The notes beneath the pieces are model-generated. The model did not search any database, was not told the DNA's origin, and was given only the letters and a program-made list of their open reading frames with translations. Positions 20,087-58,830 of a DNA stretch of 64,000 nucleotides are shown piece after piece. Positions within the stretch are counted from its first letter, which is position 1. Each line of letters starts with the position of its first letter. Made by a program: the position numbers and the translations under genes. The DNA comes from Acidobacteria bacterium 13_1_40CM_65_14 (GTDB lineage Bacteria; Acidobacteriota; Vicinamibacteria; Vicinamibacterales; CAVVIG01), in NCBI GenBank assembly GCA_001917905.1, contig MNEX01000110.1:526-64525 (forward strand), read 5' to 3'.

Positions 20087-21853
20087 CTACCGATGCGTCC
20101 TCGGCGCCCGCGGTGGTTTCTCGCCTACGGCGACACGGTTCGCTTTCGCTCTTTCGCTTTCGCCTTTTGCCATCGATTCGCCTTTCGCCTGACCGGCTCG
20201 CTCCCCCAGCATCTCACGCGCGGAGCGCCGAAGGCCATCGCTAATCGCCTCGCCTCCCAGCATGCGCGCGAGCTCGTCGACTCGACGCGCCTCATCGAGT
20301 CGTCGGACGGTCGTCTTGGTGCGGCCGTGGTCGACACGCTTTTCGATCTGAAAGTGCGTGTCGGCGTAGGCGGCGATCTGCGGCAAGTGTGTGATGCACA
20401 GCACCTGAAACGCCGAGCCCAAGCCGCGCAGCTTGCGACCGACGACGTCCGCCACGCGTCCGCCGATCCCGGCGTCGACCTCGTCGAACACCAGACCCGG
20501 CGCCGCGGTGCTCGGCGGCCGATCGGCGGCGTCGTTGAACCCGTGGCGCGACGTCGCGGTGAGCGTCTTGATCGCCAGCATGATGCGTGACAACTCGCCG
20601 CCCGACACGATGCGCGCGAGCGGACGCAGATCTTCGCCGGGATTCGGCGAGACGAAGAACTCGGCGGCGTCGATGCCTCGCGCGCTCCATTCAGCCTCGG
20701 GCAGCGCGCCACCGAACCGCACCTCGAATCGCGTCTGCTCCATCGCCAGTTCGGCCAGCAGCGTCTCGAGTTGCGTCGCAAAGCCTCCGGCGACGCGACG
20801 CCGTGCGTGCGACAGCGCCTGGGCGGCCGCCAAGTAAGCCGTGCGCGCCGCGTCCACCGCGCGCTCGAGCTCGGCGATCCGCTCGTCGCCGCACTCGAGG
20901 TCGGACCGTTCCAGCTGCAGCGCCCGATGGCGGCTGATGACGTCGGCAAGCGTCGGCCCGTATTTCCGCTTCAAGCGCTCGAGCAGCGCCAGACGCTCCT
21001 CGACTTCCTGGAGCCGCGCGGGCGACGCCTCGATGCCCTCGGCATATCGGCGCAGAAACAGCGCCAGATCCTCGAGCTGTGACTTGATGGCTTCACGAGC
21101 CTCGAGGTACGGCTGGAATTGCGGATCGAGATCGGCGAGTTCCGCGACGCGACGCCAGACATTCCCGAGGGCCGACAAAATGGCGTCGTCACGCTCGTAC
21201 AACGACGCGTAGCTCTCCACGCACAACCGCTCGACGCGCTCCGCGCTGGCCAACACGTGTCGCAGCGCGGACAGCTCGTCGTCTTCGCCCGGCTTCGGCG
21301 CGGCGCGGTCGAGTTCGCCGAGCTGGAACGCGATGAGCTCCAACCGCGCGTTCCGATCGCTGGCGGCCGTCCGGACACGTGCGAGCTCCTCCTGGGCGGT
21401 TCGACACGCTTCGAACGCCAGGGCGCACGGCCCGGCGAGCGAATCGAGCGAACCGAATGTGTCGAGGACGCCGAGGTGTGTGGACGGATCGAGCAGTGTC
21501 TGATGCTCGTGTTGACCGTGGAGCTCGATCAACCGGGCCGAAAGATCCTTGAGCGCGCCAGCAGTGGCGAGCGCCCCGTTGATGAACGCGCGGCTCCGCC
21601 CTTGCGCGGTGATTTCGCGGCGGATCAGGAGCTCGTCGCCGCCGCTTTCAAAGAGGGCTTCGATGGCCGCGCTGTCCTCGCCCGTCCGCACCAGGTCTCC
21701 GGAGGCGCGTCCGCCGAGCAGCAGCCCGACGGCTTCGACCAGAATCGACTTGCCGGCGCCAGTTTCACCGGTAAGGACGTTGAGCCCGGGATCGAACTCG
21801 ACCTCGACCGAGTCGATGACGGCGAGATGCTGGATCCGGAGGAAGCGGAGCAT
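20087..21853 (-). CDS. recN: DNA repair protein RecN
   Basis: MLRFLRIQHLAVIDSVEVEFDPGLNVLTGETGAGKSIL, plus LVFDEVDAGIGG near the C-terminus. The last roughly 35 aa are encoded by a tandem-heptamer repeat. Confidence 0.9.
   Translation of the reverse strand: MLRFLRIQHLAVIDSVEVEFDPGLNVLTGETGAGKSILVEAVGLLLGGRASGDLVRTGEDSAAIEALFESGGDELLIRREITAQGRSRAFINGALATAGALKDLSARLIELHGQHEHQTLLDPSTHLGVLDTFGSLDSLAGPCALAFEACRTAQEELARVRTAASDRNARLELIAFQLGELDRAAPKPGEDDELSALRHVLASAERVERLCVESYASLYERDDAILSALGNVWRRVAELADLDPQFQPYLEAREAIKSQLEDLALFLRRYAEGIEASPARLQEVEERLALLERLKRKYGPTLADVISRHRALQLERSDLECGDERIAELERAVDAARTAYLAAAQALSHARRRVAGGFATQLETLLAELAMEQTRFEVRFGGALPEAEWSARGIDAAEFFVSPNPGEDLRPLARIVSGGELSRIMLAIKTLTATSRHGFNDAADRPPSTAAPGLVFDEVDAGIGGRVADVVGRKLRGLGSAFQVLCITHLPQIAAYADTHFQIEKRVDHGRTKTTVRRLDEARRVDELARMLGGEAISDGLRRSAREMLGERAGQAKGESMAKGESERAKANRVAVGEKPPRAPRTHR
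20141..20189. repeat. Single-arm tandem heptamer array (CTTTCGC-type) in the recN 3' end
   Basis: cgctttcgctctttcgctttcgccttttgccatcgattcgcctttcgcc encodes AKGESMAKGESERAKA. Confidence 0.7.
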
Positions 21854-25935: not shown

Positions 25936-26775
25936 ATGAGACACAGAATTCTCGCCGTGGTTCTCGCCGGCGCGCTGGTCGCTGTCGCCGCGATGCCGGC
26001 GTCGGCCGCGAACAAGGAACATCAACAGCTGATGGCCGACATCCGCATGCTGCAGGAGCAATCGCAGCTGCTGCAGAACATGCTCGCGTCGCTGACCGAC
26101 GTCGTGAAGACGTTGAGCACGCATCTCGATCAGCGGCTGGATCAGCAGAACGCGGCGCTCGTCAAGGGCTTCGCCGATCAGAAGCTGATTCTCGATACGT
26201 TGTCGAACGACGCGCGCGTCATTCGCGAACGTCTCGATGACAACAACGTCCGCATCGGCTCGCTGACGCAGGAAGTCGAAGCGCTCCGTCATGCCCTGCA
26301 GCAGCGTCCCACCTCGACGGAGGTCGATCCGACCGGCGCCGCCGCGACGTCGGGCGGCGGCTCGAACGCCGGCGGATCGGCGCCGCCGGTCGGCTTGTCG
26401 CCGCAGAAGATGCAGGAAACAGCCCAGGCCGACTACGCGGCCGGCCAGTACGATCTGGCGATCGAAGGGTTCCAGGCGTACATCAAGAATTTTCCGAAGT
26501 CCGACTGGGTCGACGACGCGCAGCTGTTCATCTGCAAGTCTTATCTGCTCGAGGGCAAGAACGACAAGGCCGTGGACGCATGCGACGCGGTGATCCGCAA
26601 TTACCCGAGCGGCAACGCGGTTCCTGAGGCGTACTATCGGAAAGGTCTCGCCCTGAGCAATCTCCGCGACGTCGCCGGCGCGCGCGCGGCGTGCGACACC
26701 GTCGTGAAGAATTACAAAGACAGCGACGTCGCGATCCTCGCGCAGCAATGCCTCGACCGATTGCGGCGCCCGTAG
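25936..26775 (+). CDS. cpoB: Tol-Pal system protein CpoB/YbgF
   Basis: Signal peptide, coiled-coil N-terminal domain, and a C-terminal TPR region (YDLAIEGFQAYIKNFPKSDW...). Located downstream of pal. Confidence 0.8.
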   Translation: MRHRILAVVLAGALVAVAAMPASAANKEHQQLMADIRMLQEQSQLLQNMLASLTDVVKTLSTHLDQRLDQQNAALVKGFADQKLILDTLSNDARVIRERLDDNNVRIGSLTQEVEALRHALQQRPTSTEVDPTGAAATSGGGSNAGGSAPPVGLSPQKMQETAQADYAAGQYDLAIEGFQAYIKNFPKSDWVDDAQLFICKSYLLEGKNDKAVDACDAVIRNYPSGNAVPEAYYRKGLALSNLRDVAGARAACDTVVKNYKDSDVAILAQQCLDRLRRP

Positions 26776-26780
26776 CCATT

Positions 26781-26915
26781 CAGAACTTAGAACTTAGAAC
26801 TCAGAACTCAGAACTCAGAACTTAGAAGTTCGGAGCCGACGATGTAGAATGCTTCGGCTCGTTCACCGTTCTCAGTTCTAAGTTCTAAGGTCTGAGTTCT
26901 CATTTCTGAGTTCTC
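26781..26915. repeat. Hairpin with tandem-heptamer arms (AGAACTY x7 / complementary units) between cpoB and ssb
   Basis: Left arm 26781-26828 and right arm 26867-26915. The loop contains its own small stem, GAGCCGA...TCGGCTC. Confidence 0.85.
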
Positions 26916-26932
26916 AACCCCGAAGGGCACCT

Positions 26933-31218: not shown

Positions 31219-31314
31219 GTAAGGCAGGATAGGCAGGATGGGCAGGATAGGCAGGATCGGCGGCGCCTCCCCTCCCATCCAGCCCGTCCCGCCTATCCCG
31301 CCCTTCCCGCCTAC
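31219..31314. repeat. Hairpin with tandem-octamer arms (GGCAGGAT x4 / ATCCCGCC-type) between rapZ and EIIA
   Basis: Left arm 31219-31260 and right arm 31274-31314, with a loop of about 13 nt. The right arm touches the rapZ stop. Confidence 0.8.
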
Positions 31315-36266: not shown

Positions 36267-36352
36267 CCACCACAGAGGACACGGGGGACACGGAGGAACA
36301 AACCTGTTCCGGTTGGCTTTACCCTCTGTGTCCTCCACGTCCTCCGTGGTGG
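36267..36352. repeat. Hairpin CCACCACAGAGGACACGGGGGACACGGAGG / complement, between the lptC/A gene and lptB
   Basis: Arms at 36267-36296 and 36323-36352. The arms are near-identical to those at 54791-54876. Confidence 0.85.
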
Positions 36353-38496: not shown

Positions 38497-38530
38497 CAGT
38501 TCAGACTTCAAACGTCAGACTTCAGACTGC
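38497..38530. repeat. Single-arm tandem repeat (TCAGACTTCA-type) at the recJ stop / lptC/A start
   Basis: cagttcagacttcaaacgtcagacttcagactgc. The recJ stop codon lies inside it. Confidence 0.6.
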
Positions 38531-40233
38531 CGGAGATCGGCGAGGGTCAGCTCGACGAACGTTTCTCCATTGTACTGATTCTGTTCGAGGGAGAAGGCGA
38601 CGTCGAGTGCCGCCTTGTGCTCGGTGAGGTAGTCGTGGCGCTCGGCCGCGCGCCAGGCGATGGCGCGGAAGATGCGGCCGTCCTGCTTGAGCGCCATCTT
38701 GAGGTGTCGCTCCTTCAGCTTGCGCGGACCATCGATGATCTCGACTCGTCTGGCGGCAAATACCGGTCGCGGGTTCCCGGCGCCGAAGGGCGCGAGCGCT
38801 GCGACGCCGTAGGCGACGTCGCCCGTGATGCCGCGGAACGTGAGGTCGCCGTCGATACGCAGCCGCGGCATGAGATCGTCAGGACCCAGCGTTTCGTCGG
38901 CGACGGCGTTCACGGCCAACCGCAGCTCTTTGATGCGCGACGCCTCGAGCGCCAGCCCCGCGGCTTGCCTGTGCCCGCCAAATCGCATGAGCAGGTGCGC
39001 GCATCGCTCGAGCGCACCGAGCATGTCGAACTTCGAAATGCTGCGGCACGACCCGTGGGCCACGCCGTCTTCGACCGACAACACAATGGCGGGACGATGG
39101 AACGCGTCGACGAGCTTGGAGGCCACGATGCCAATCACGCCCCGGTGCCAGCCGTCGCCGGCCACGACCAGCACGGACCGCGCGCCGATGTCCGGATCCG
39201 TTTGAACGATCTTTTTGGCGGCGGCGAGGATGTCCGCTTCTTCTTCCTGCCGCTTGAGGTTCTCGCCGTCGAGCGTCATCGCCAGCTGCCGCACTTCTTC
39301 CGCCATCGCTTCGTCGGCGGCGAGGAGCAGCCGCGTGGCGATGTCGGGCGTGCTCATGCGGCCGGCGGCGTTGACCCGCGGCGCCAGCAGGAACGAGATG
39401 TGATAGCTGTCGATCGTCTTGCCCGTCAGCCCTGAGATGTCGAGCAGCGATCGCAACCCGATCTTGTGCGGCCCGCGCGTCAGCAGATCGAGACCCAGTT
39501 TCGCGATCACGCGGTTCTCGCCGACGAGCGGGACGACGTCGGCCAGCGTGCCAATCGCCGCGACCTTGATGAAGCCCGGCATCCAGCCGTCCCGATCCGC
39601 GCGGCGGCAGAGGGCCTGCACCAGCTTCAGCGCGACGCCGACGCCGGCGAGGTACTTGTCCGGATAGCTGCAGTCGCGGCGCTTCGGATTGATGACCGCC
39701 AGGGCCGGCGGCAGCTCGGCGTCCGGTTCGTGGTGATCGGTGATGATCAGATCGACGCCGAGCTCGCGTGCCCGGCGCGCCGCCTCGGCGCCGCGAATAC
39801 CGCAGTCGACCGACACGACCAGCGCGACACCGTCCGCGTGGAGCCGCTCGATCGCGACGGGTTGCAGGCCGTAGCCGTCCTTCAATCGCTCCGGAATGAA
39901 GTGCACGACGTCGGCGCCGAGCATCTCCAGCGCGCGCCGCAGAATGACCGTCGACGTGATGCCATCCACGTCGTAGTCGCCGTGAATCGCGATCCGCTCC
40001 TTCCGCTCGATGGCGGCCATGATCCGATCGACCGCCACGCGCATGTCGGCGAGCAGCAGCGGATCGTGCAGGTGGTCGAGCGATGGATTGAGGAAGCGCT
40101 GCGCCGTTTCCGGATCGCCGAGGCCGCGCTGACACAGCAACCGCGCCACGATCGGCGCAATGCCAAGGACCGCCGCGAGGCGCTCGGAGGCCGGATCGTC
40201 ACAGGGTTGGAGATCCCAGCGCGGTGAAATCAT
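38515..40233 (-). CDS. recJ: Single-stranded-DNA-specific exonuclease RecJ
   Basis: DHH motifs IAIHGDYDVDGITS, VVSVDCG and IITDHH, plus DHHA1 GGHRQAAG. Confidence 0.9.
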   Translation of the reverse strand: MISPRWDLQPCDDPASERLAAVLGIAPIVARLLCQRGLGDPETAQRFLNPSLDHLHDPLLLADMRVAVDRIMAAIERKERIAIHGDYDVDGITSTVILRRALEMLGADVVHFIPERLKDGYGLQPVAIERLHADGVALVVSVDCGIRGAEAARRARELGVDLIITDHHEPDAELPPALAVINPKRRDCSYPDKYLAGVGVALKLVQALCRRADRDGWMPGFIKVAAIGTLADVVPLVGENRVIAKLGLDLLTRGPHKIGLRSLLDISGLTGKTIDSYHISFLLAPRVNAAGRMSTPDIATRLLLAADEAMAEEVRQLAMTLDGENLKRQEEEADILAAAKKIVQTDPDIGARSVLVVAGDGWHRGVIGIVASKLVDAFHRPAIVLSVEDGVAHGSCRSISKFDMLGALERCAHLLMRFGGHRQAAGLALEASRIKELRLAVNAVADETLGPDDLMPRLRIDGDLTFRGITGDVAYGVAALAPFGAGNPRPVFAARRVEIIDGPRKLKERHLKMALKQDGRIFRAIAWRAAERHDYLTEHKAALDVAFSLEQNQYNGETFVELTLADLRQSEV

Positions 40234-40278
40234 CCTCCTTCACTCAATCGGTACACGGGTTGCTCGATGCGCTTAATC

Positions 40279-40756
40279 AACACAAAGGGCACAAAGGACA
40301 CAAAGCTTTTTTATGGGACCGAACGCCGTGAGTCGTCGGGTCATCGGCTCCGCCATCAAAGTCCACAACGCTCTGGGCGCCGGTGTTCTCGAAAGCGCAT
40401 ACCACGCTTGCCTTTGTCATCAATTCGCCGAAGACGGCCTGCAGTTTCAACACCAGGTGCGGTTGCCGATCGTCTACGAAGGAGTCGAGCTGCCAGCTGT
40501 CTATCGGGTCGACTTCATCGTCGAAAAATGCCTCATCGTCGAGGTCAAGTGTGTGGAAAAACTGCTACCCGTTCACTCCGCGCAGCTGCTTTCCTACCTG
40601 CGACTAAGCGGCTACAAGCTCGGACTGCTAATCAACTTCAATGTTGCTCATCTCCGCGACGGCATCCGGCGGAAGATCAACGGTCCTGAAAGCGAGTTGT
40701 GACCGTCTCCTGAGGGGACTGGGTTTTCCCTTTGTGTCCTTTGTGTCCTTTGTGTT
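40279..40756 (+). mobile_element. Tandem-heptamer hairpin cassette carrying a GxxExxY ORF in its loop (putative selfish insertion)
   Basis: The left arm AACACAAAGGGCACAAAGGACACAAAG (40279-40305) and the right arm CCCTTTGTGTCCTTTGTGTCCTTTGTGTT (40728-40756) are inverted arrays of CACAAAG units. The interior has lower GC than its surroundings. Confidence 0.45.
40313..40702 (+). CDS. GxxExxY protein (PD-(D/E)XK nuclease-like small protein family)
   Basis: 129 aa with HNALGAGVLESAYHACL (G-x-x-E-x-x-Y) and RVDFIVEKCLIVEVK (D...E-x-K-like), followed by QLLSYLRLSGYKLGLLINF. Confidence 0.8.
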   Translation: MGPNAVSRRVIGSAIKVHNALGAGVLESAYHACLCHQFAEDGLQFQHQVRLPIVYEGVELPAVYRVDFIVEKCLIVEVKCVEKLLPVHSAQLLSYLRLSGYKLGLLINFNVAHLRDGIRRKINGPESEL

Positions 40757-40790
40757 CACTCAGCGATGGAACAAGCTACCCGTCCGAGTA

Positions 40791-41762
40791 TCAGCTTCCC
40801 TCGTCGCGGAAATCGGTTCCCAACCGGCCCATGTTCCGGAACTTGTCATAACGGAGGGCCAGCCGCGTCTCCCCATCCAGCGCGCTCACGTCGCTCAACA
40901 TTCTGGTGAGCACATCGTCGACCTGCTTGGCGGCGGCAGCGGGATCGGTGTGAGCGCCGCCGATCGGCTCGCCGATGATCTCGTCGATGATGCCGGCGTG
41001 AAGCAGATCCGGCGCCGTGAGCTTGAGCGCTGCCGCGGCTTCGATTTTCTTGGTGGCATCGCGCCACAGGATGGCGGCGCAGCCTTCGGGCGGAATCACG
41101 CTGTAGATCGCGAACTCCTGCATCAGCACCCGATCGCCAATTGCGATGCCGAGCGCGCCACCGCTGCCGCCTTCGCCGCTGACGATGACGACGATCGGCG
41201 TGTCGAGCATCATCATGTCGCGCAGGTTGACCGCAATCGCCTCGGCGACGCCGCGCTCCTCGGACTCGATGCCGGGATACGCCGCCGGCGTGTCGACGAA
41301 GACGATGATCGGGCGGCTGAATTTCTCGGCGAGGCGCATCGCGCGCAGCGCCTTGCGGTACCCTTCGGGCCGCGCGTACCCGAAGTTCCGGTAGATCTTC
41401 TCCTTGGTGTCGCGGCCCTTGACGTGACCCACGAGCAGCACCGGCCGATCTTTGTAATCCGCAAAGCCGGTCATGATGGCGTGGTCGTCGGCGTAGCGGC
41501 GATCGCCGTGGATCTCGACGAAATTCGTGAACAACCGGTGGATGAAATCTTCGAGGTCGGGCCGGCTCGGATGGCGCGCGACGAGCACCCGCTGCCACGG
41601 CGTCAGCGAGCGATAGAGCTCGGCGCGGACCGACTCGACGCGCCGCCGCAGCACCTCGATCTCACGATCGCGCGCGTCGGTGCGCGGCTGGAGCGTCAAC
41701 GCCTCGATCTCCTTCAGGAGAACGGCGATCGGCTCCTCGAATTCGAGGTTCTCCAGAGCCAT
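40791..41762 (-). CDS. accA: Acetyl-CoA carboxylase carboxyltransferase subunit alpha
   Basis: LTPWQRVLVARHPSRP, IIVFVDTPAAYPGIESEERG and SGEGGSGGALGIA. Confidence 0.9.
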   Translation of the reverse strand: MALENLEFEEPIAVLLKEIEALTLQPRTDARDREIEVLRRRVESVRAELYRSLTPWQRVLVARHPSRPDLEDFIHRLFTNFVEIHGDRRYADDHAIMTGFADYKDRPVLLVGHVKGRDTKEKIYRNFGYARPEGYRKALRAMRLAEKFSRPIIVFVDTPAAYPGIESEERGVAEAIAVNLRDMMMLDTPIVVIVSGEGGSGGALGIAIGDRVLMQEFAIYSVIPPEGCAAILWRDATKKIEAAAALKLTAPDLLHAGIIDEIIGEPIGGAHTDPAAAAKQVDDVLTRMLSDVSALDGETRLALRYDKFRNMGRLGTDFRDEGS

Positions 41763-41777
41763 CTACAGCAGGTCTCT

Positions 41778-41879
41778 CCACGAAAACACGAAACCGCGAA
41801 AACACCCTTCGACGAGCTCAGGGCAAGCGCCTGTGGTGAGCGTGTCGAACCATGGTTTCGTGCTTTCGTGGTTTCGTGG
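41778..41879. repeat. Hairpin with tandem-heptamer arms (CGAAAAC-type) between accA and dnaE
   Basis: Left arm CCACGAAAACACGAAACCGCGAAAACAC and right arm GGTTTCGTGCTTTCGTGGTTTCGTGG. The 48-nt loop has nested stems TTCGAC/GTCGAA and GCTCA/TGAGC. Confidence 0.85.
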
Positions 41880-41896: not shown

Positions 41897-44800
41897 TCAT
41901 CGCAGCTCCACGGATCCGGCGCCGACCACCTGCTCCAGTTCGGCGATCAGGTTCGGCGACGGCCGTACGCGAATCTGTGAGCTGACCTCGACTTTGACCC
42001 GCAGCCGGTTCGGCGGCTCGCCGGTTTCGACCTCGAACGATACCTTGCGGTCGCCGCGGTGGCGCGAAAAGATTTCGCCGAGCGTCTCGAGCGTGTTCCG
42101 GTCGGCCGGCTTGCGCAGGTGGATCGCGACCTCGCGCGCCAGACGCTCGCGGACGCTGTCGATCGGCGTGATCTCCGACGCGAGAATGCGCACCGTCTCG
42201 TCGTCTCGTTCCAGCTTCCCGCGGACGAGGACCATCGTGCCGGTCTCGATCAAGCCGGCGCTACGCTGATACGTTTCAGGGAACGCGATAACTTCGACGC
42301 CGCCTTGCGAATCCTCGAGGGTGAACACCGCCATGCGATCGCCCTTGCGCGTTTTGAGCTGACGGCACGCGGCGACGATGCCGCCGATGCTGGTGTCGGG
42401 CTCGATCGGCTTCGGTCCGGCCGGGCCCCAACCGTTGTCGCGCGAAGCGCCCGGCTGAACGTCCGCGAGCTCGGCGACCGACTTCGCGCCGAGCTCTTTC
42501 AGCGCCGGCGCGTACCGATCGACCGGATGGCCGCTCCAGTACAGGCCGAGCGTCTCTTTCTCAAAGGCCAACTGCTCGGCATCGGTCCACGGTTTCGCAT
42601 CGGGTAGCGTGACGCCTCGCCCGGGGACGGTCTGAAGCCCGTCCCCTTCATCCGATGGGTGGCCATCGTCGAAGCCGCCGAACAACTGGGCCTGGCCTTG
42701 ATCGCGATCGCGCTGGGCGCGCGCCCCGTACTCGCACGCGCCGTCGACGGCCGCGAGCAGCCGCGGCCTCAAGGCGACCGACGGAAGCGACTCGTAGGCC
42801 GTGCCCTTCGCAAGCGAGTCGAACGCCCCCGCCTTCGTCAGGCTCTCGAACACGCGCTTGTTGACGAGCCGCAGGTCGAGGTCCTCGCATAGCGAGACGA
42901 GCGACGTGATGCGGCCCTGCTTCTTTCGCACGTCGAGGAGCGACTGAATCGCGCCTTCGCCGACGTTCTTGATCGCGAACAGCCCAAACCGGACGCCGTG
43001 GCCTGGTTCGACGGTGAACCGCAGCTGGCTTTCGTTGATGTCCGGCGGCAGCACCGGAATTCCGCGTTCGCGGCACTCGCCGAGGTACAGCGCGAGCTTG
43101 TCGGTGTTCTCCGCTTCGATCGTCAACAGCGACGCAGCGAAGTGCCACGGGTAATTCGCCTTCAGATACGCGGTCTGGTAGGCGAGAAACGCGTAGGCCG
43201 TCGAGTGCGCTTTCGGGAATCCGTAACCGGCGAAGTGCTCCATCAAGTCGAAAATCTGCCCGGCCTTCTTGTCGTTGACGCTGTTTTTCTTCGCGCCCTC
43301 GACGAACTTGCCGCGCTGCTTCGCCATCACCTCAGGGTTCTTCTTGCCCATCGCCTTGCGGAGGATGTCGGCTTCGCCGAGCGTGAAGCCGGCGAGCTCG
43401 CGCGCGATCCGCATCACCTGTTCCTGATACGCGATGACGCCGTAGGTCTCGCGAAGAATCGGCTCGAGCTGCGGCAGCTCGTACTTGACTTCGGTCTTGC
43501 CCTGCTTGCGCGCGATGTAGTCGTCGACCATGCCGCTGCGAAGCGGTCCCGGCCGGTACAGCGCGTTCAACGCGATGAGATCCTCGAGCGTGTGCGGCTT
43601 CGCCTTCCGCAGAATGTCGCGCATGCCGCTCGATTCGAACTGGAAGATGCCGTAGGTCTGGCCGTCCTGAAAGATCTGATACGTTTTTGCATCGTCGAGC
43701 GGCACGCGGCCGATGTCGAGCTCCTCGCCCGTCGTCTGTTCGATCGCCGCCACGGCGTCGGTGATGAGCGTCAGCGTGCTGAGGCCGAGGAAGTCCATCT
43801 TCAGCAGGCCCACGCGCTCGATGTCCTTCATCGACCACTGCGTGACGATTTCGTCGTGGGCGCCGCGATAGAGCGGCGCGTACTCCGTGATCGCCCGCGG
43901 CGCAATCACGACGCCGGCGGCGTGCACGGACGCATGGCGAGTCATGCCTTCGAGGCGCTTGGCGACGCTGAGCAGCTCCTTGACCTTCGGATCGTTCTGC
44001 TCCATCTGCCGCAGCGGCTCGCTCTCCTCGAGCGCCTTGTCGAGCGTCATGTCGAGCGCTGCGGGAATCAGCTTCGCGACCTTGTCGACGTCCGCAAACG
44101 GCATCTCGAGCACGCGGCCGACGTCGCGCACGACGGCCTTCGCCTTCATCGTCCCGAACGTGATGATCTGCGCGACGTTCTCGCGGCCGTACTTCTGCGT
44201 GACGTACTCGATGACCTCGCCGCGGCGCCGCTCGCAGAAGTCGATGTCGATGTCCGGCATCGACACGCGCTCGGGGTTCAGAAACCGCTCGAAAATGAGG
44301 TCGAAGTCCAGCGGATCGACGTCGGTGATGCGAAGACAGTAGGCCACCAGGCTGCCGGCGGCGGATCCGCGGCCCGGCCCGACCGGAATGCCGCGCTCGC
44401 GCGCGTAGCGGATGAAGTCCCAGACGATCAGGAAGTATCCCGGATACTTCATCTTCTTGATCATCTCGACTTCGTACGAGAGGCGGCGCTCGTACTCGTC
44501 GATGGTGTGGCGCAGCGCACCTGACGCCGACAGCTGTTGCAGCCGTGGAAGCCGATGCGTGAATCCTTCGCGGACAACATGCTCGAAGTAATCGTCGAGT
44601 GTGAATCCGGCCGGCACGTCGAAGTTCGGCAGGTAGTTCTCGCCTTCGCCGATCGTCACGTCGCAGCGGTCGGCGATGCGGACCGTGTTGGCGACCGCGT
44701 CCGGGAAATCCTTGAAGACGTCCGCCATCTCCTCTGATGTTTTCAGGAAGAATTGCCGCGCCTCGTAGCGCAACCGCTTCGGATCACTGAAAGCTTTGCC

Positions 44801-45478
44801 CGTGCCGATGCACAGCAGGATGTCATGTGGATGCGCGTCGCTGTCGCGCAGGTAGTGGACGTCGTTGGTGCAGACGAGGCCCAGGCCGAGATCCTTCGCA
44901 ATCGCCGGGATGCCGCTGTTGACGACGCGCTGCTCCTCGATGCCGTGCCACTGCATCTCGAGAAAAAAGTTCTCGGGGCCGAGGATGTCCTTGTACGCGG
45001 CCGCCGCGTCGCGCGCTTTCCTCTCCTGCTGATGCGAGAGGCCCTCGGCGACCTCGCCTTTCAAGCAGCTGCTGAGACCGATGAGACCCTTGGCATGCTG
45101 CGCGAGCAGCTCCTTGTCGATGCGAGGCTTGTAGTAGAAACCTTCGGTGTACCCGGCCGACACGAGCTTGATCAGATTGTGGTAGCCCTCGCTGGTCTCG
45201 GCGAGCAGCACGAGATGATTCGCCGTCTCCCCCGGATTCCCGCTCTTGTGACGGCGATCGCCCGGCGCGACGTACACCTCACACCCGAGAATCGGCTTCA
45301 CGCCCTTCTTGCGGGCCTGATCGTGGAACATCACCGACGAAAAGAGGTTCCCGTGCTCGGTGATCGCAATCGCCGGCATCTTCAGCTTCGCTGCGTGGTC
45401 CAGCAGCTCGTCGATGCGGCACGCGCCGTCGAGCAGCGAGAACTCGGTGTGGAGATGCAAATGAACGAATTCGGTCAT
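41897..45478 (-). CDS. dnaE: DNA polymerase III alpha subunit
   Basis: N-terminal PHP domain FVHLHLHTEFSLLDGA and a 1193-aa collinear DnaE architecture including the OB-fold region. Confidence 0.95.
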   Translation of the reverse strand: MTEFVHLHLHTEFSLLDGACRIDELLDHAAKLKMPAIAITEHGNLFSSVMFHDQARKKGVKPILGCEVYVAPGDRRHKSGNPGETANHLVLLAETSEGYHNLIKLVSAGYTEGFYYKPRIDKELLAQHAKGLIGLSSCLKGEVAEGLSHQQERKARDAAAAYKDILGPENFFLEMQWHGIEEQRVVNSGIPAIAKDLGLGLVCTNDVHYLRDSDAHPHDILLCIGTGKAFSDPKRLRYEARQFFLKTSEEMADVFKDFPDAVANTVRIADRCDVTIGEGENYLPNFDVPAGFTLDDYFEHVVREGFTHRLPRLQQLSASGALRHTIDEYERRLSYEVEMIKKMKYPGYFLIVWDFIRYARERGIPVGPGRGSAAGSLVAYCLRITDVDPLDFDLIFERFLNPERVSMPDIDIDFCERRRGEVIEYVTQKYGRENVAQIITFGTMKAKAVVRDVGRVLEMPFADVDKVAKLIPAALDMTLDKALEESEPLRQMEQNDPKVKELLSVAKRLEGMTRHASVHAAGVVIAPRAITEYAPLYRGAHDEIVTQWSMKDIERVGLLKMDFLGLSTLTLITDAVAAIEQTTGEELDIGRVPLDDAKTYQIFQDGQTYGIFQFESSGMRDILRKAKPHTLEDLIALNALYRPGPLRSGMVDDYIARKQGKTEVKYELPQLEPILRETYGVIAYQEQVMRIARELAGFTLGEADILRKAMGKKNPEVMAKQRGKFVEGAKKNSVNDKKAGQIFDLMEHFAGYGFPKAHSTAYAFLAYQTAYLKANYPWHFAASLLTIEAENTDKLALYLGECRERGIPVLPPDINESQLRFTVEPGHGVRFGLFAIKNVGEGAIQSLLDVRKKQGRITSLVSLCEDLDLRLVNKRVFESLTKAGAFDSLAKGTAYESLPSVALRPRLLAAVDGACEYGARAQRDRDQGQAQLFGGFDDGHPSDEGDGLQTVPGRGVTLPDAKPWTDAEQLAFEKETLGLYWSGHPVDRYAPALKELGAKSVAELADVQPGASRDNGWGPAGPKPIEPDTSIGGIVAACRQLKTRKGDRMAVFTLEDSQGGVEVIAFPETYQRSAGLIETGTMVLVRGKLERDDETVRILASEITPIDSVRERLAREVAIHLRKPADRNTLETLGEIFSRHRGDRKVSFEVETGEPPNRLRVKVEVSSQIRVRPSPNLIAELEQVVGAGSVELR

Positions 45479-49110: not shown

Positions 49111-49219
49111 GTGAAGAAATCACGTGAACGCAAAGGCCGCTAAGACCGCAAAGACGAATCTTTTCGAAAAAGATGCTTTGCGCGCTTTGCGATCTTTGCG
49201 TTCAACGTGATTCTTTCAC
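49111..49219. repeat. Hairpin with tandem-heptamer arms (CGCAAAG-type) downstream of the BamB-like gene
   Basis: Left arm GTGAAGAAATCACGTGAACGCAAAGGCCGCTAAGACCGCAAAGACG and right arm GCTTTGCGCGCTTTGCGATCTTTGCGTTCAACGTGATTCTTTCAC. The loop is the palindrome-like AATCTTTTCGAAAAAGAT. Confidence 0.85.
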
Positions 49220-50789: not shown

Positions 50790-53700
50790 GTGTCCGTCAT
50801 CCTGCGTGTGGCCCGAGCGGGGCTCGTCGCCGCACTGCTCGTCGCCCTCGTCGGCTGGGCGTCCGAGCGTCAGCGCTTCGGCTCCTCGGACCAGGCCGCG
50901 CTCGCACGCGTGGAGCGCGAGCTGCGCCAGCGCTTCGACGCGAGCGCCGACACGCTCGGCAGCCTGGCGGCGCGCGTGGCGTCCAACCGCGAGGCCTTTG
51001 GCGCGGCGCCGCGCGACGCCGCGGAGGTCAAGCGGCTCTTCGACGCTTGCGCCGCCGCGATTCCCAGCGATCAGGCGGGGCGCACCGGCATCAGCATCTA
51101 CGACCCGACGGCGGCGCCGCTCGCGTGGGCCGGCCGCGTCTCCGACCTCCCGCGGGCTCGCATCGACGGTCCCGCGGCCTTGTTCGTCGCGCCCGGCGCG
51201 CTCGGACCGCGACTCATCCGGATCGAGCCGGTGATGAACGGCGATCGATCGTCTGCGGTGCGCCTCGCGACGGTCGTCGTGGAACAAACACTCGGCACGG
51301 CAGCCGGCGCGCCGGGCCCCGCGGACAGCTTCGTTCTGGCCACATCGATCGCCCCAGCGGCGGTACGAACACCACTCCCAATCTCCAATCAACAATCAAT
51401 CCGCAATCCGCAACCCGCAATCCGCACTGACAGCACCGGTCCGTACTCCTTCGTGATCCCGTCGCCGAATGGCGGTGTGCTCGTTGAGGCGGCGGTGTCA
51501 CCGCAGGACCTTGCGTCCGCGCGCGACGGCTGGTCGCGCGGTGTGCGCGCGACCGTCATCTCGGTGCTGGGCGTGACGCTGCTCCTCTGCGCCTGGCCCA
51601 CCGTCGAACTGCGTCGGCGGACGCCAAGCGCGCGAACGTTCCTCCTCGCCACGGCCGCGACCATCGCGATGTTGCTCGCCGCCCGCTTCACGTTCTGGAT
51701 CGCCGCGGCTGCGGTCGTCGATGCGCTGGGCGCCGGATCTCCGCTCAATCTGCTGCTCACCGCGCTGACCACGGCCGCGCTCGCGTGGCTGGCGATCGAT
51801 CTCATCGAGCGGCGGCGGCTCGCCCGGCCGCGGCCGCGCGTCTTGACCCCGTCGCTGCCCGTGGGCGCGTTGTGGACCGCCGCGTTTGCCATGGCGGGGC
51901 TCGCCGGCACGTGGCTCGTCTGGCTCTACGAACGGATCGTGCAGAGGGTGATATCGCACACCGATCTCGACCTCCTGCACTTCTCCCTGCATCCGATTAG
52001 CGCTGCGCGGCTCGGACTGACCTGCGCGCTCGTGCTGCTCGACGCCGCGATCATCTGGAGCGCCGCCGCAATGATTCGCGTGCCGGCGCTGGTCAGCCGT
52101 CCGCCGCGGAGCCGGACGTGGCGCGCCGGCGCCGCCGTGGCGTGGATGGCGGGCGTCGTGCTCGCCACCTTCGTGCTGCGCCTGCCTGGACCGCCCGTGC
52201 CGGTCGGGCCGCTCTGGATCGCGATGCTGGCGGCGGGCGTGTCCGCGATCGTGCTCGCGCGCATCGGCAGCAAGCTCCGGCGGGCGTCACAAGCGGCGCG
52301 GCTCGTCGCCGTCTTCCTCGCACTTCTCGTTCCGGCGGTGGCGATGTATCCGTCGCTCTTCGCCTATGCGACCGAGGCCAAAGAGCTGCTGATCGCCGGC
52401 GAGTACGGGCCGCAGGCGCTGCGCCAGCGAGACGATTTGAAGTTGCGGCTCGCGCACACGCTCGATCAGATCGACGCGCTGCCAACACTCCGGCAGTTCG
52501 TGACCGCGTCGGGAATCTCGAATGGCGCCGCGGGCCCCGCGCCGACCACGGACCGCGCGTTCTTCGTCTGGTCGAAGACGGATCTCGCCACCTACCGCTT
52601 GACGTCCGCCATCGAGCTGTACGGCGCCAACGGCCGTTTGGTGGATCGTTTCTCCAACCTGCCGGAATACACGGCTGCGCCGTACTTCGCGACGAGTTGC
52701 AGCTGGGAGCCGGTCGCCGAGGTGTCGCCATTCGGCTCGGCGATTCGCCAAGTGCTGCGCGCGAGCCGCGGCATCTGTGAGCGCGGCCGGCCGATCGGCG
52801 CCATCGTCGTGCGCGCGATGCTCGACTATCGGACGCTGCCGTTCATTTCCTCGCAAAGCCCGTATCTGGAATCGCTCCGGCCGAACCGCGAGGCGCGGGC
52901 CGAAGGCGTCTTCGGCCGCGACGTGGAATTCGTGGTGTACGGGTGGAGCCGCGCGCCGCTCTTCAGCTCCGGCACCAGCGTCTGGCCGCTGCCCGATCGC
53001 GTCTTCGAGCGGATGGTGGAGTCGCGCGAGCCGTTCTGGGACGAGTTGGAGCGCGACGAGCGCCAGTACCGCGTGGATTTTCTCAACGATCGCGGGGGGA
53101 TCTACGCGCTCGGCTACCCGGTCATCACGTGGTTCGGCCACGTCATCAACATGGCCGAGCTCGTGACGCTGACAGGCGTCCTGTATCTCGCGCTGCTCCT
53201 CGGCGCCACGCTGTTCAACCTGCTCACGTCGCGGACGCCAGCGAGCGGCCGCGCGCTGCTGCGCGAGGTGCGGTCCAGTTTCTATCGCAAGTTGTTTCTC
53301 GCGTTCTGGGCCGTGGCGGTCGTACCGGTCGCCATCCTCGCGATCGGCACGCGGACCTATGTCGCGGCGCAGCTCCGCGCGAGCACCGAGGAAGCGGCGG
53401 CCAGGACGGTGACGGTCGCGCAACGCCTGGTCGAGGACTACGCGTCGCTCCAGCAACGCGGTCCCGGTTCGCTGACGACGATCGACGATCAAATCATGGT
53501 GCTCGTACGGCGCGCGATCGACGAAGACGTGAACCTCTTCGACCGCGACCACCTGCAGGCGACCAGTGCTCGCGATCTGTTCGCCACGCAGCTCCTGCCG
53601 ATGCGGACGCCGGGCGACGTGTACAAGACGATTCTGCTCGACCGGATGCCCACCTTCGTCGGCGAAGAGCAGGTTGGCGATCTGACGGCATATCGCCTCG

Positions 53701-54790: not shown

Positions 54791-54876
54791 CCACCACGGA
54801 GGACACGGGGGACGCGGAGGAAAAATCGTGTTTTGGACAGGGTTGACCCTCCTGTCCTCCGTGTCCCCTGTGGTGG
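54791..54876. repeat. Hairpin CCACCACGGAGGACACGGGGGACGCGGAGG / complement, downstream of the kinase
   Basis: Arms at 54791-54820 and 54848-54876. It is a sequence homologue of 36267-36352, including partial loop similarity. Confidence 0.85.
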
Positions 54877-58642: not shown

Positions 58643-58763
58643 GCTCCGCCTCCTTGGACATCGATTAAGCGGGGAACTCGAGAACGGTGGAGAGGGCCGT
58701 GCGGCTGCATCAATTCCGAGTATGTGACGAGCCGAAAGTACCACAACGATACCGGCGTTTCAA

Positions 58764-58830
58764 CCCCAACAGCTGAGACCCCAACAGCTGAGAGCTGATT
58801 GCCGAGAACTGAGAGCTGCGGCTTTCAGTT
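58764..58830. repeat. Perfect 15-bp tandem duplication (CCCCAACAGCTGAGA x2) followed by the hairpin AACTGAGAGC-TGC-GGCTTTCAGTT
   Basis: 58764-58778 is identical to 58779-58793, with a hairpin at 58807-58830 just 3' of the rimI stop. Confidence 0.8.

Follow-up and report, generated by a model that had tools for sequence, protein, structure and literature searches.

A GxxExxY gene of the PD-(D/E)XK type between inverted CRCRRAG arrays at an acidobacterial recJ-accA junction, and related hairpins that lack the gene

The intervening sequences (IVSs) of 23S rRNA, found in Coxiella, Leptospira and others, hold a small open reading frame (ORF) in the loop of a long stem whose two sides are terminal inverted repeats. 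In Coxiella, the terminal stem of the IVS is 28 bp long, its loop contains an ORF, and ahead of that ORF stand three tandem heptamers (GACAGAT) whose number varies between strains; RNase III cuts at the first repeat, an AG-rich sequence resembling a Shine-Dalgarno (SD) site lies inside the stem, and the element, which has no transposase, is regarded as selfish (PMC4990558). Here we describe a locus of similar design in 64,000 nucleotides of DNA from Acidobacteria bacterium 13_1_40CM_65_14 (contig MNEX01000110.1, positions 526 to 64,525; this whole stretch is referred to as the window). Between recJ and accA, a gene of the GxxExxY/PDDEXK_3 nuclease family is bracketed by inverted tandem arrays of a short motif, CRCRRAG (R, purine), and we refer to the gene and its arrays together as the cassette. 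As in the IVSs, a small ORF lies in the loop of a long stem made by terminal inverted repeats, the 5' arm carries tandem repeats immediately ahead of the ORF, an SD-like sequence lies within the stem, and there is no transposase. The cargo differs, being a PD-(D/E)XK protein (PDDEXK_3 only) where the IVS encodes an S23p four-helix bundle (PF05635), and so do the location, which is the recJ-accA intergenic gap and not a 23S rRNA helix, and the repeat core, which is CRCRRAG.

Other described elements share parts of this design. Repetitive extragenic palindromic (REP) doublets forming hairpins (REPINs) and their REP-associated tyrosine transposases (RAYTs) likewise combine a mostly vertically inherited gene, flanked by inverted short repeats, with non-coding intergenic hairpins dispersed elsewhere, and persist over long times under purifying selection. 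RAYTs, however, are IS200/IS605-like HUH (Y1) transposases, whereas the cassette enzyme matches only PDDEXK_3 in Pfam; the cassette repeats are arrays of 7-10 nt units and not REP palindromes, their unit variants differ between loci, and the GxxExxY family is horizontally spread and sometimes multi-copy. Miniature inverted-repeat transposable elements (MITEs) and their autonomous parents offer a second likeness, in that short, dispersed, ORF-less copies showing presence/absence variation carry the terminal inverted sequences of a longer, ORF-bearing element. Unlike MITEs and insertion sequences (ISs), the cassette has GxxExxY as its only ORF and no transposase, no target-site duplication is visible, and each end is itself a repeat array. 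Free-standing homing endonuclease genes, including those of the PD-(D/E)XK type, are also small nuclease-fold genes of atypical composition that lie between housekeeping genes and are pseudogenised, deleted and replaced in relatives, but here there is no intron or intein, no empty target allele was seen in 13 lineages, and purifying selection has acted over saturated synonymous divergence (dS).

Cyanobacterial short tandemly repeated repetitive (STRR) sequences are intergenic tandem heptanucleotide repeats whose arrays often form hairpins. The cassette arrays resemble them in being intergenic and built on tandem heptanucleotides, but the CRCRRAG core differs from the classical STRR units (CCCCAGT, TTGGTCA and CAACAGT), and to our knowledge no link between STRRs and GxxExxY genes has been described. 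Intrinsic terminators have a short GC-rich stem followed by a U-tract, whereas the cassette arms are 25-60 nt long and have no such tract; the one match to the terminator consensus is a small separate stem at 40705-40719. Compared with an integron cassette, the element has inverted arrays on both sides of its ORF and not a single 3' attC, and no integrase is found among the genes called within ~5 kb. The element fits none of the 23S IVS, REPIN/RAYT, MITE/IS and classical homing gene categories, and works like a mix of these. We favour reading it as one hairpin-bracketed, IVS-like cassette, with a PD-(D/E)XK gene in the loop, a stem of CRCRRAG units and MITE-like solo derivatives, and put the probability of this reading at roughly 0.55. 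The gene-plus-arms package looks like a largely undescribed, transposase-free cassette, selfish or domesticated.

The gene occupies positions 40313-40702 on the plus strand. Its left arm (40270-40305) consists of three CACAAAG(G)N units with a 9-nt period (40280-40305, ACACAAAGG in 2.9 copies) and an outer extension, and ends 7 nt before the ATG. The right arm (40729-40765), the reverse complement of the left, consists of three CCTTTGTGT units (40729-40755) and an outer extension, and begins 26-27 nt after the stop codon. The best inverted repeat pairs 40270-40305 with 40730-40765 over 36 nt at 89% complementarity, the two halves lying 424 nt apart. A first-pass annotation, made from the letters of the window alone, had described a 129-aa GxxExxY ORF bracketed by inverted CACAAAG arrays. 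That description holds, with the ORF intact, as do the heptamer core and the downstream distance of 26 nt, but the arrays repeat every 9 nt (the heptamer plus 2 nt) and not every 7, and the upstream distance is 7 nt and not 8. The sequence CRCRRAGNNCRCRRAG occurs six times in the window against 0.22 expected; this excess, together with the 0/2,619 control intervals reported below, rejects a chance origin of the arms.

When the full cassette is folded, the arm-arm stem is retained in the minimum free energy and centroid folds of either strand (z -5.1, -4.1). Among orthologues the arm units shift jointly on both sides, being CACAAAG/CTTTGTG in the window, CGCAGAG/CTCTGCG in lineage L022 and CACCAAG/CTGGTG in lineage L026. 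When 11 arm pairs were aligned from their outer ends, pairing held in 93.8% of cells and both partners had changed in 11 of the 25 pairs, a level of covariation that none of 500 shuffles reached, and slid partners in the same alignment pair far less. Complementarity of the arms is maintained by compensatory change, the cause of which would be RNA structure, DNA structure or gene conversion. Several orthologues carry AGGA or GGAGG 5-14 nt upstream of the start codon, an SD-like sequence that belongs to the last left-arm unit.

Judged by its sequence, the 129-aa protein is a clear member of the GxxExxY/PDDEXK_3 family, matching both PF13366 (PDDEXK_3; E 5e-41, 140.2 bits against a cut-off of 22) and TIGR04256 (GxxExxY; E 5e-42, 142.9 bits against a cut-off of 35). 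The signature reads G24-x-x-E27-x-x-Y30, D67, E77-x-K79, and the PD-(D/E)XK core residues E27, D67, E77, K79 and Q91 are all intact. The catalytic residues, which the first-pass annotation had singled out as a check, are present in 98-100% of an 81-sequence alignment (E27, E77, K79 and Q91 in 100%, D67 in 98%). An AlphaFold2 model built on a shallow alignment reached a pLDDT of 65 and shows an alpha-alpha-beta5-alpha order consistent with the PD-(D/E)XK fold. Foldseek with this model returned nothing significant from the PDB, the top entries being Cas4 SSO0001 (E 0.16) and AF1548, and a sequence search of the PDB gave no match. Given the moderate model and the lack of a significant Foldseek neighbour, the fold assignment rests on Pfam and on motif conservation. 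For the protein, PADLOC matches were confined to weak ones with Cas4 and RT-PDDEXK (E 0.006-0.025), and PHROGs had none; the function of GxxExxY/PDDEXK_3 is listed as unknown (PMC3424549).

A genome scan yielded 80 GxxExxY loci from Acidobacteriota, Cyanobacteria, Bacteroidota, Planctomycetota, Chloroflexota, Verrucomicrobiota, Gemmatimonadota, Proteobacteria, Spirochaetota and the Methanosarcinales, of which 79 were usable for flank counts. At least two CRCRRAG units within 150 nt upstream, together with at least two reverse-complement units downstream, were found at 49/79 of these loci as against 0/2,619 control intervals, on a background of 0.13 motifs per 150 nt. The consensus units derived de novo by Tandem Repeats Finder all conform to C-R-C-R-R-R-G, and the stem arrays consist of CRCRRAG units with 1-4 nt spacers. 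Polarity is also shared: the arrangement 5'-CRCRRAG...CTYYGYG-3', which is identical on both strands, outnumbers the opposite one 69 to 3 (p = 3e-17). Loop lengths fall into two groups (3-145 nt and 343-765 nt), and an archaeal locus, L044, has the same arms. Flank enrichment, shared consensus and shared polarity therefore make the gene and its arms one conserved package, and the two travel together over bacterial phyla and into the Methanosarcinales. Within cellular loci, the ORFs inside CRCRRAG-type hairpins are almost only GxxExxY. The expectation of the first-pass annotation that GxxExxY genes are each flanked by inverted arrays of their own is borne out for the flanking at 49/79 loci, whereas a private repeat for each gene is rejected, CRCRRAG being common to loci across phyla. 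At least 8,000 GxxExxY/PDDEXK_3 relatives were scored, and some genomes hold multiple or tandem copies of the gene. In a Bacteroidales metagenome-assembled genome (MAG; L103:330-1520), two tandem GxxExxY genes each have their own arrays, with a repeated linker (GTGAAACAAATTACGTAAATGTTTCTCGCAGAGCACGCAAAG) between them, an arrangement like a small cassette array.

In the window, recJ (38515-40233) and accA (40791-41762) are the left and right neighbours of the cassette, conserved as such in all relatives, and dnaE (41897-45478) lies beyond accA. All three are on the minus strand and the cassette ORF is antisense between recJ and accA. It is the sole plus-strand gene at this locus, as had been noted, but this is not a trait of the family, in which 51/67 members are co-directional with both neighbours. 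The genes called within ~5 kb are sigma-54, lptB, lpt, recJ, accA, dnaE, a PycTM-like gene and guaA. The identical protein is encoded in soil MAGs and in metagenome contigs, each time in the order recJ <- [GxxExxY ->] <- accA <- dnaE. The sources of AccA homologues assign the locus to Vicinamibacterales (Acidobacteriota subgroup 6).

Relatives were sampled in two ways. Nine lineages, the window and eight others (L018, L022, L025, L026, L029 and L226-L228), came from a search with the GxxExxY protein; since such a sample is biased towards presence, four lineages found through AccA (L350-L353) were added. The eight relatives found with the GxxExxY protein carry the gene at recJ|accA in 8/8 cases, and its protein identity runs from 82% down to 55% where RecJ identity runs only from 93% to 83%. 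In total, the gene or a remnant of it occupies the site in 13/13 Vicinamibacterales lineages sampled, and the ratio of nonsynonymous to synonymous divergence (dN/dS) among orthologues is 0.05-0.18 with dS saturated. Among the lineages found through AccA, L352 has an intact gene and L353 a gene with a 1-nt frameshift, while L351 retains both arms around ~34 codons of the ORF (tblastn E 8e-10), an internal deletion and not an empty site. L350 has a degraded copy, a case left uncertain by its error-prone contig; one or two lineages are frameshifted. In L029, the right arm is absent. Presence in all lineages, combined with the states of L351, L353 and L029, therefore indicates an old resident in which decay occurs. 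At recJ|accA the cassette has long been resident, has passed down mostly by vertical descent and is under purifying selection, and a recent insertion there is rejected by the gene or remnant found in every lineage sampled.

A second allele also exists at this site: in L352 and L353, recJ|accA is occupied by a different GxxExxY gene (61-64% identity) with CACGGAGGA-type arms. By the identities of RecJ, AccA, DnaE and Lpt, L353 groups with the window, L018 and L022, whereas its GxxExxY gene and arms group with those of L352. This conflict between allele and host genes therefore means that ORF and arms were replaced as a block, or that an old polymorphism persists. The recJ|accA site shows the life cycle of a selfish element: alleles are replaced as a block, frameshifts arise, an arm is lost, and deletion of the ORF leaves the hairpin on its own. 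The suggestion of a selfish or homing-type element, made from the sequence of the window, gains from the second allele in L352 and L353, the decay in L351 and the solo copies described below, but the copy in the window is not recently mobile, given a gene or remnant in 13/13 lineages. Between the recJ start and the cassette, 20-30 nt from the left arm on its outer side (~40255-40265 in the window), stands a short conserved (G)GTTGCT motif that keeps this position in all relatives, beside both cassette alleles; it may be part of the recJ leader or of a promoter.

The lower GC content of the ORF, visible in the first-pass annotation, is real: GC is 0.564 and GC at third codon positions (GC3) is 0.677, against 0.64-0.67 and 0.85-0.86 in the neighbours. 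Orthologous ORFs in L018, L022, L025, L026, L029 and L226-L228 have a GC of 0.53-0.59 and a GC3 of 0.62-0.76 in hosts of GC 0.66-0.70. Low ORF GC thus persists in every orthologue although synonymous sites are saturated, with no amelioration, and nucleotide-level constraint or repeated replacement is a possible reason.

Hairpins without an ORF occur elsewhere in the window. One at 36267-36352 (CCACCACAGAGGACACGGGGGACACGGAGG ... CCTCCGTGGTGG), between lptB and an lptC/D-like gene, and one at 54791-54876, between convergent genes, are ~80% identical over arms and loop and, by that sequence identity, are copies of one ~86-nt element. Both agree with the L353 cassette at their ends and into the outer flanks (AAACnCnCCACCAC / GTGGTGGAGAGTT), and the lptB|lpt junction of L023, L226 and L227 has no copy of the 36267-36352 hairpin. 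The first-pass annotation had taken ORF-less hairpins for footprints of the cassette, and both these matching ends and the arms with ~34 codons left in L351 support it. At least some of the short ORF-less hairpins are dispersed copies with cassette-type ends and presence/absence variation, and behave like non-autonomous (MITE-like) derivatives. Within the window, the cassette and the solo hairpins share the CRCRRAG motif class and differ in unit variant. A further hairpin of the same motif class, with CGCAAAG units at a period of 9, lies between convergent genes at 49125-49204.

The hairpin in the accA-dnaE gap (41778-41879) consists of CACGAAAN units at a period of 8, in 43-nt arms around a 16-nt apical loop (-53.8 kcal/mol, z -5.8). 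It is a real hairpin, but the view of it as an empty or decayed cassette site is not supported: it contains no ORF remnant and is conserved in place, with orthologues in L022 and L026. In L025 and L029, accA and dnaE directly adjoin each other and the hairpin is absent. The hairpin has been inherited in place while its units and copy number drifted. Within its loop, an inner palindrome at 41808-41850 (TTCGACGAGCTCAGGGCAAGCGCCTGTGGTGAGCGTGTCGAA) occurs once in the window, is absent from the L022 and L026 orthologues, and looks like a nested small insertion.

How might such a cassette persist and spread? We infer a mechanism of spreading, with homing by the nuclease as its driving step, that would operate at two levels. 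At the RNA level, a stem of 26-36 bp would form in transcripts of either strand and, by analogy with the Coxiella 23S rRNA IVS, would be cut by RNase III. Such processing would insulate the insert from the dnaE-accA-recJ operon, making insertion into an essential operon harmless, and the stem would bury the purine-rich, SD-like last left-arm unit and so keep expression low. At the DNA level, the nuclease may recognise or cut CRCRRAG hairpins or cruciforms. The repeated arms could then serve as portable homology, with a break in one hairpin repaired from another cassette. As a proposal, cutting by the nuclease plus homology of the arms would account for both replacement in blocks and transposase-free spread.

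Several results weigh against a mobile cassette of this kind. The empty recJ-accA site that the first-pass annotation proposed to look for was not seen in any clean form among the 13 lineages; with 13/13 sites occupied and a dN/dS of 0.05-0.18, the locus is vertically conserved largely without presence/absence variation. The arm mismatches (30 G:U and 36 A:C) bear no strand-specific RNA signature, comparison with L023 reveals no target-site duplication at the 36267 insertion, and unit variants differ among hairpins of the window genome, unlike in a young replicating repeat family. Full-text literature searches on the family names turned up neither a nuclease activity nor a substrate for GxxExxY proteins. 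Carriage of the gene by phages or plasmids is rare at most, with none found in IMG/VR by the patterns used and only 6 among 72,556 plasmids. We also sampled three-unit CACARAG arrays without regard to GxxExxY, from 120 metagenome loci and 120 viral contigs. In the metagenome sample 61/136 arrays were partnered, mostly across loops of 6-212 nt. GxxExxY genes lay near the arrays in 4/120 metagenome loci, which make up most of the ORF-sized loops, and in 0/120 viral contigs; hairpins can therefore exist without a nuclease encoded in cis. These samples and the rarity of the gene on mobile replicons indicate that hairpins are far commoner than the gene. The phage-contig arrays flank ordinary genes (for the Mu gpT head protein, SSB and a connector), so phages carry such intergenic hairpins without GxxExxY, and since the ORFs in the viral contigs are ordinary phage genes, several apparent array pairs there are probably neighbouring hairpins. 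Finally, relatives have hairpins of unrelated units at the orthologous lpt|recJ site, which argues that some tandem-array hairpins originate in situ, and this unit diversity is unexplained by a single element family.

The main rival explanation builds on such observations. On this account, the hairpins serve the host as regulatory RNA elements of intergenic gaps, acting as bidirectional terminators or attenuators, as sites of RNase III processing or as stabilisers of mRNA; they arise and evolve in place by slippage and compensation, GxxExxY is a passenger or host gene, perhaps for an enzyme that processes the hairpins, and nothing is mobile. Hairpins in many intergenic gaps of the window, co-directional and convergent alike, would be expected if so, as would the drifting units of the inherited accA|dnaE hairpin, the unrelated units at lpt|recJ, the same arrays between ordinary phage genes, a vertically stable cassette under purifying selection, and a family of which 51/67 members are co-directional with both neighbours, as operon members would be. 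We nevertheless think it unlikely, because it leaves unexplained why one motif with one polarity accompanies one gene family across phyla and archaea, why two ~86-nt copies share a loop sequence and cassette-type ends, why a hairpin was gained or lost at lptB|lpt, and how ORF and arms were replaced as a block against the host tree; moreover, no U-tract follows the stems, and arms of 25-60 nt are far beyond typical terminator stems. A second rival, which we regard as quite improbable, is a REPIN/RAYT-like arrangement in which a domesticated, mostly single-copy, vertically inherited enzyme copies or maintains short CRCRRAG hairpins in trans and its gene is flanked by its own repeats. REPIN-RAYT systems are themselves vertically inherited and persistent (doi 10.1101/2021.07.10.451892; PMC5581495), and the fixed site, vertical inheritance and purifying selection seen here agree with that, as do the flanking of the gene by inverted copies of a motif class dispersed as ORF-less hairpins and the excess of solo hairpins over cassettes. 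The protein, though, is assigned to the PD-(D/E)XK fold by Pfam and is no HUH/Y1 transposase, the cassette arms (CACAAAGG) differ from the solo-hairpin units of the window (CACGGAGGA, CGCAAAGAC and CACGAAA), some genomes have tandem or multiple GxxExxY copies, and spread across phyla at ~50% identity argues for horizontal gene transfer, unlike RAYTs.

The IVS-like cassette with MITE-like derivatives, which we prefer, admits a bolder and doubtful extension that we offer tentatively: GxxExxY nucleases and CRCRRAG hairpins might form a pan-prokaryotic, transposase-free mobile system. In such a system the nuclease would cut hairpin or cruciform DNA built of the repeats, the arms would provide homology for copying into other hairpins, solo hairpins would be both non-autonomous copies and landing pads, and ORF-bearing 23S IVSs would be a special case with different cargo. 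What is new here is that genes of the family are accompanied by inverted arrays sharing one short, conserved motif, and that the same hairpins are scattered without the gene. GxxExxY/PDDEXK_3, a very large family in many phyla and some archaea, thereby gains a concrete context, as a structure-associated nuclease-family gene tied to a hairpin, and the package connects the family with the question of how ORF-bearing 23S rRNA IVSs originated. If the nuclease does drive copying, this would be a new transposase-free route of DNA mobility; even otherwise, these hairpins would be a kind of intergenic element that is widespread in bacteria and their phages and has hardly been described. Full-text searches on the family names found no description of flanking arrays for GxxExxY; database curators may have noted repeats near the family.

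Some minor features complete the picture of the locus and its surroundings. Between the stop codon and the right arm, the small plus-strand stem-loop at 40705-40719 is terminator-like and has a T-rich tail, with a weak consensus match only; a scan for sigma-70 promoters near the cassette found none. Rfam at the gathering threshold assigned no family, rRNA included, in the whole window. Two hairpins of the window belong to other unit families. The larger (26765-26931; -59.8 kcal/mol, z -6.2) has seven TCAGAAC units facing seven GTTCTGA-type units across a loop of ~40 nt and lies between two plus-strand genes, its units unlike CRCRRAG; the other (31222-31313; -57.3 kcal/mol) has four AGGCAGGAT units facing ATCCCGCCT-type units and lies between two minus-strand genes. 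At the lpt|recJ junction, four TTCAGAC units form a one-sided array reaching over the recJ stop codon in the window (38500-38528) and in L022 (2110-2150), while L018 (2090-2200) has a GGGATTC-type hairpin and L026 (2030-2210) a GAGGATGTRAG x8 hairpin. One-sided arrays with no inverted partner also occur at 51378-51426, 20139-20190 and 58763-58818 (CAATCCG x4, TTCGCYT, and ACCCCAACAGCTGAG x2 with AGCTGAG), some of them inside or at the ends of long ORFs. In viral contigs L154, L221, L225, L130 and L148, CACARAG-type and other arrays lie around genes for a Mu-like gpT major head protein, SSB and a gp6-like connector. Two metagenome contigs (L305:200-330 and L337:1250-1650) contain nested hairpins, in which an outer CACAAAGGA-type hairpin surrounds an inner one made of different units.

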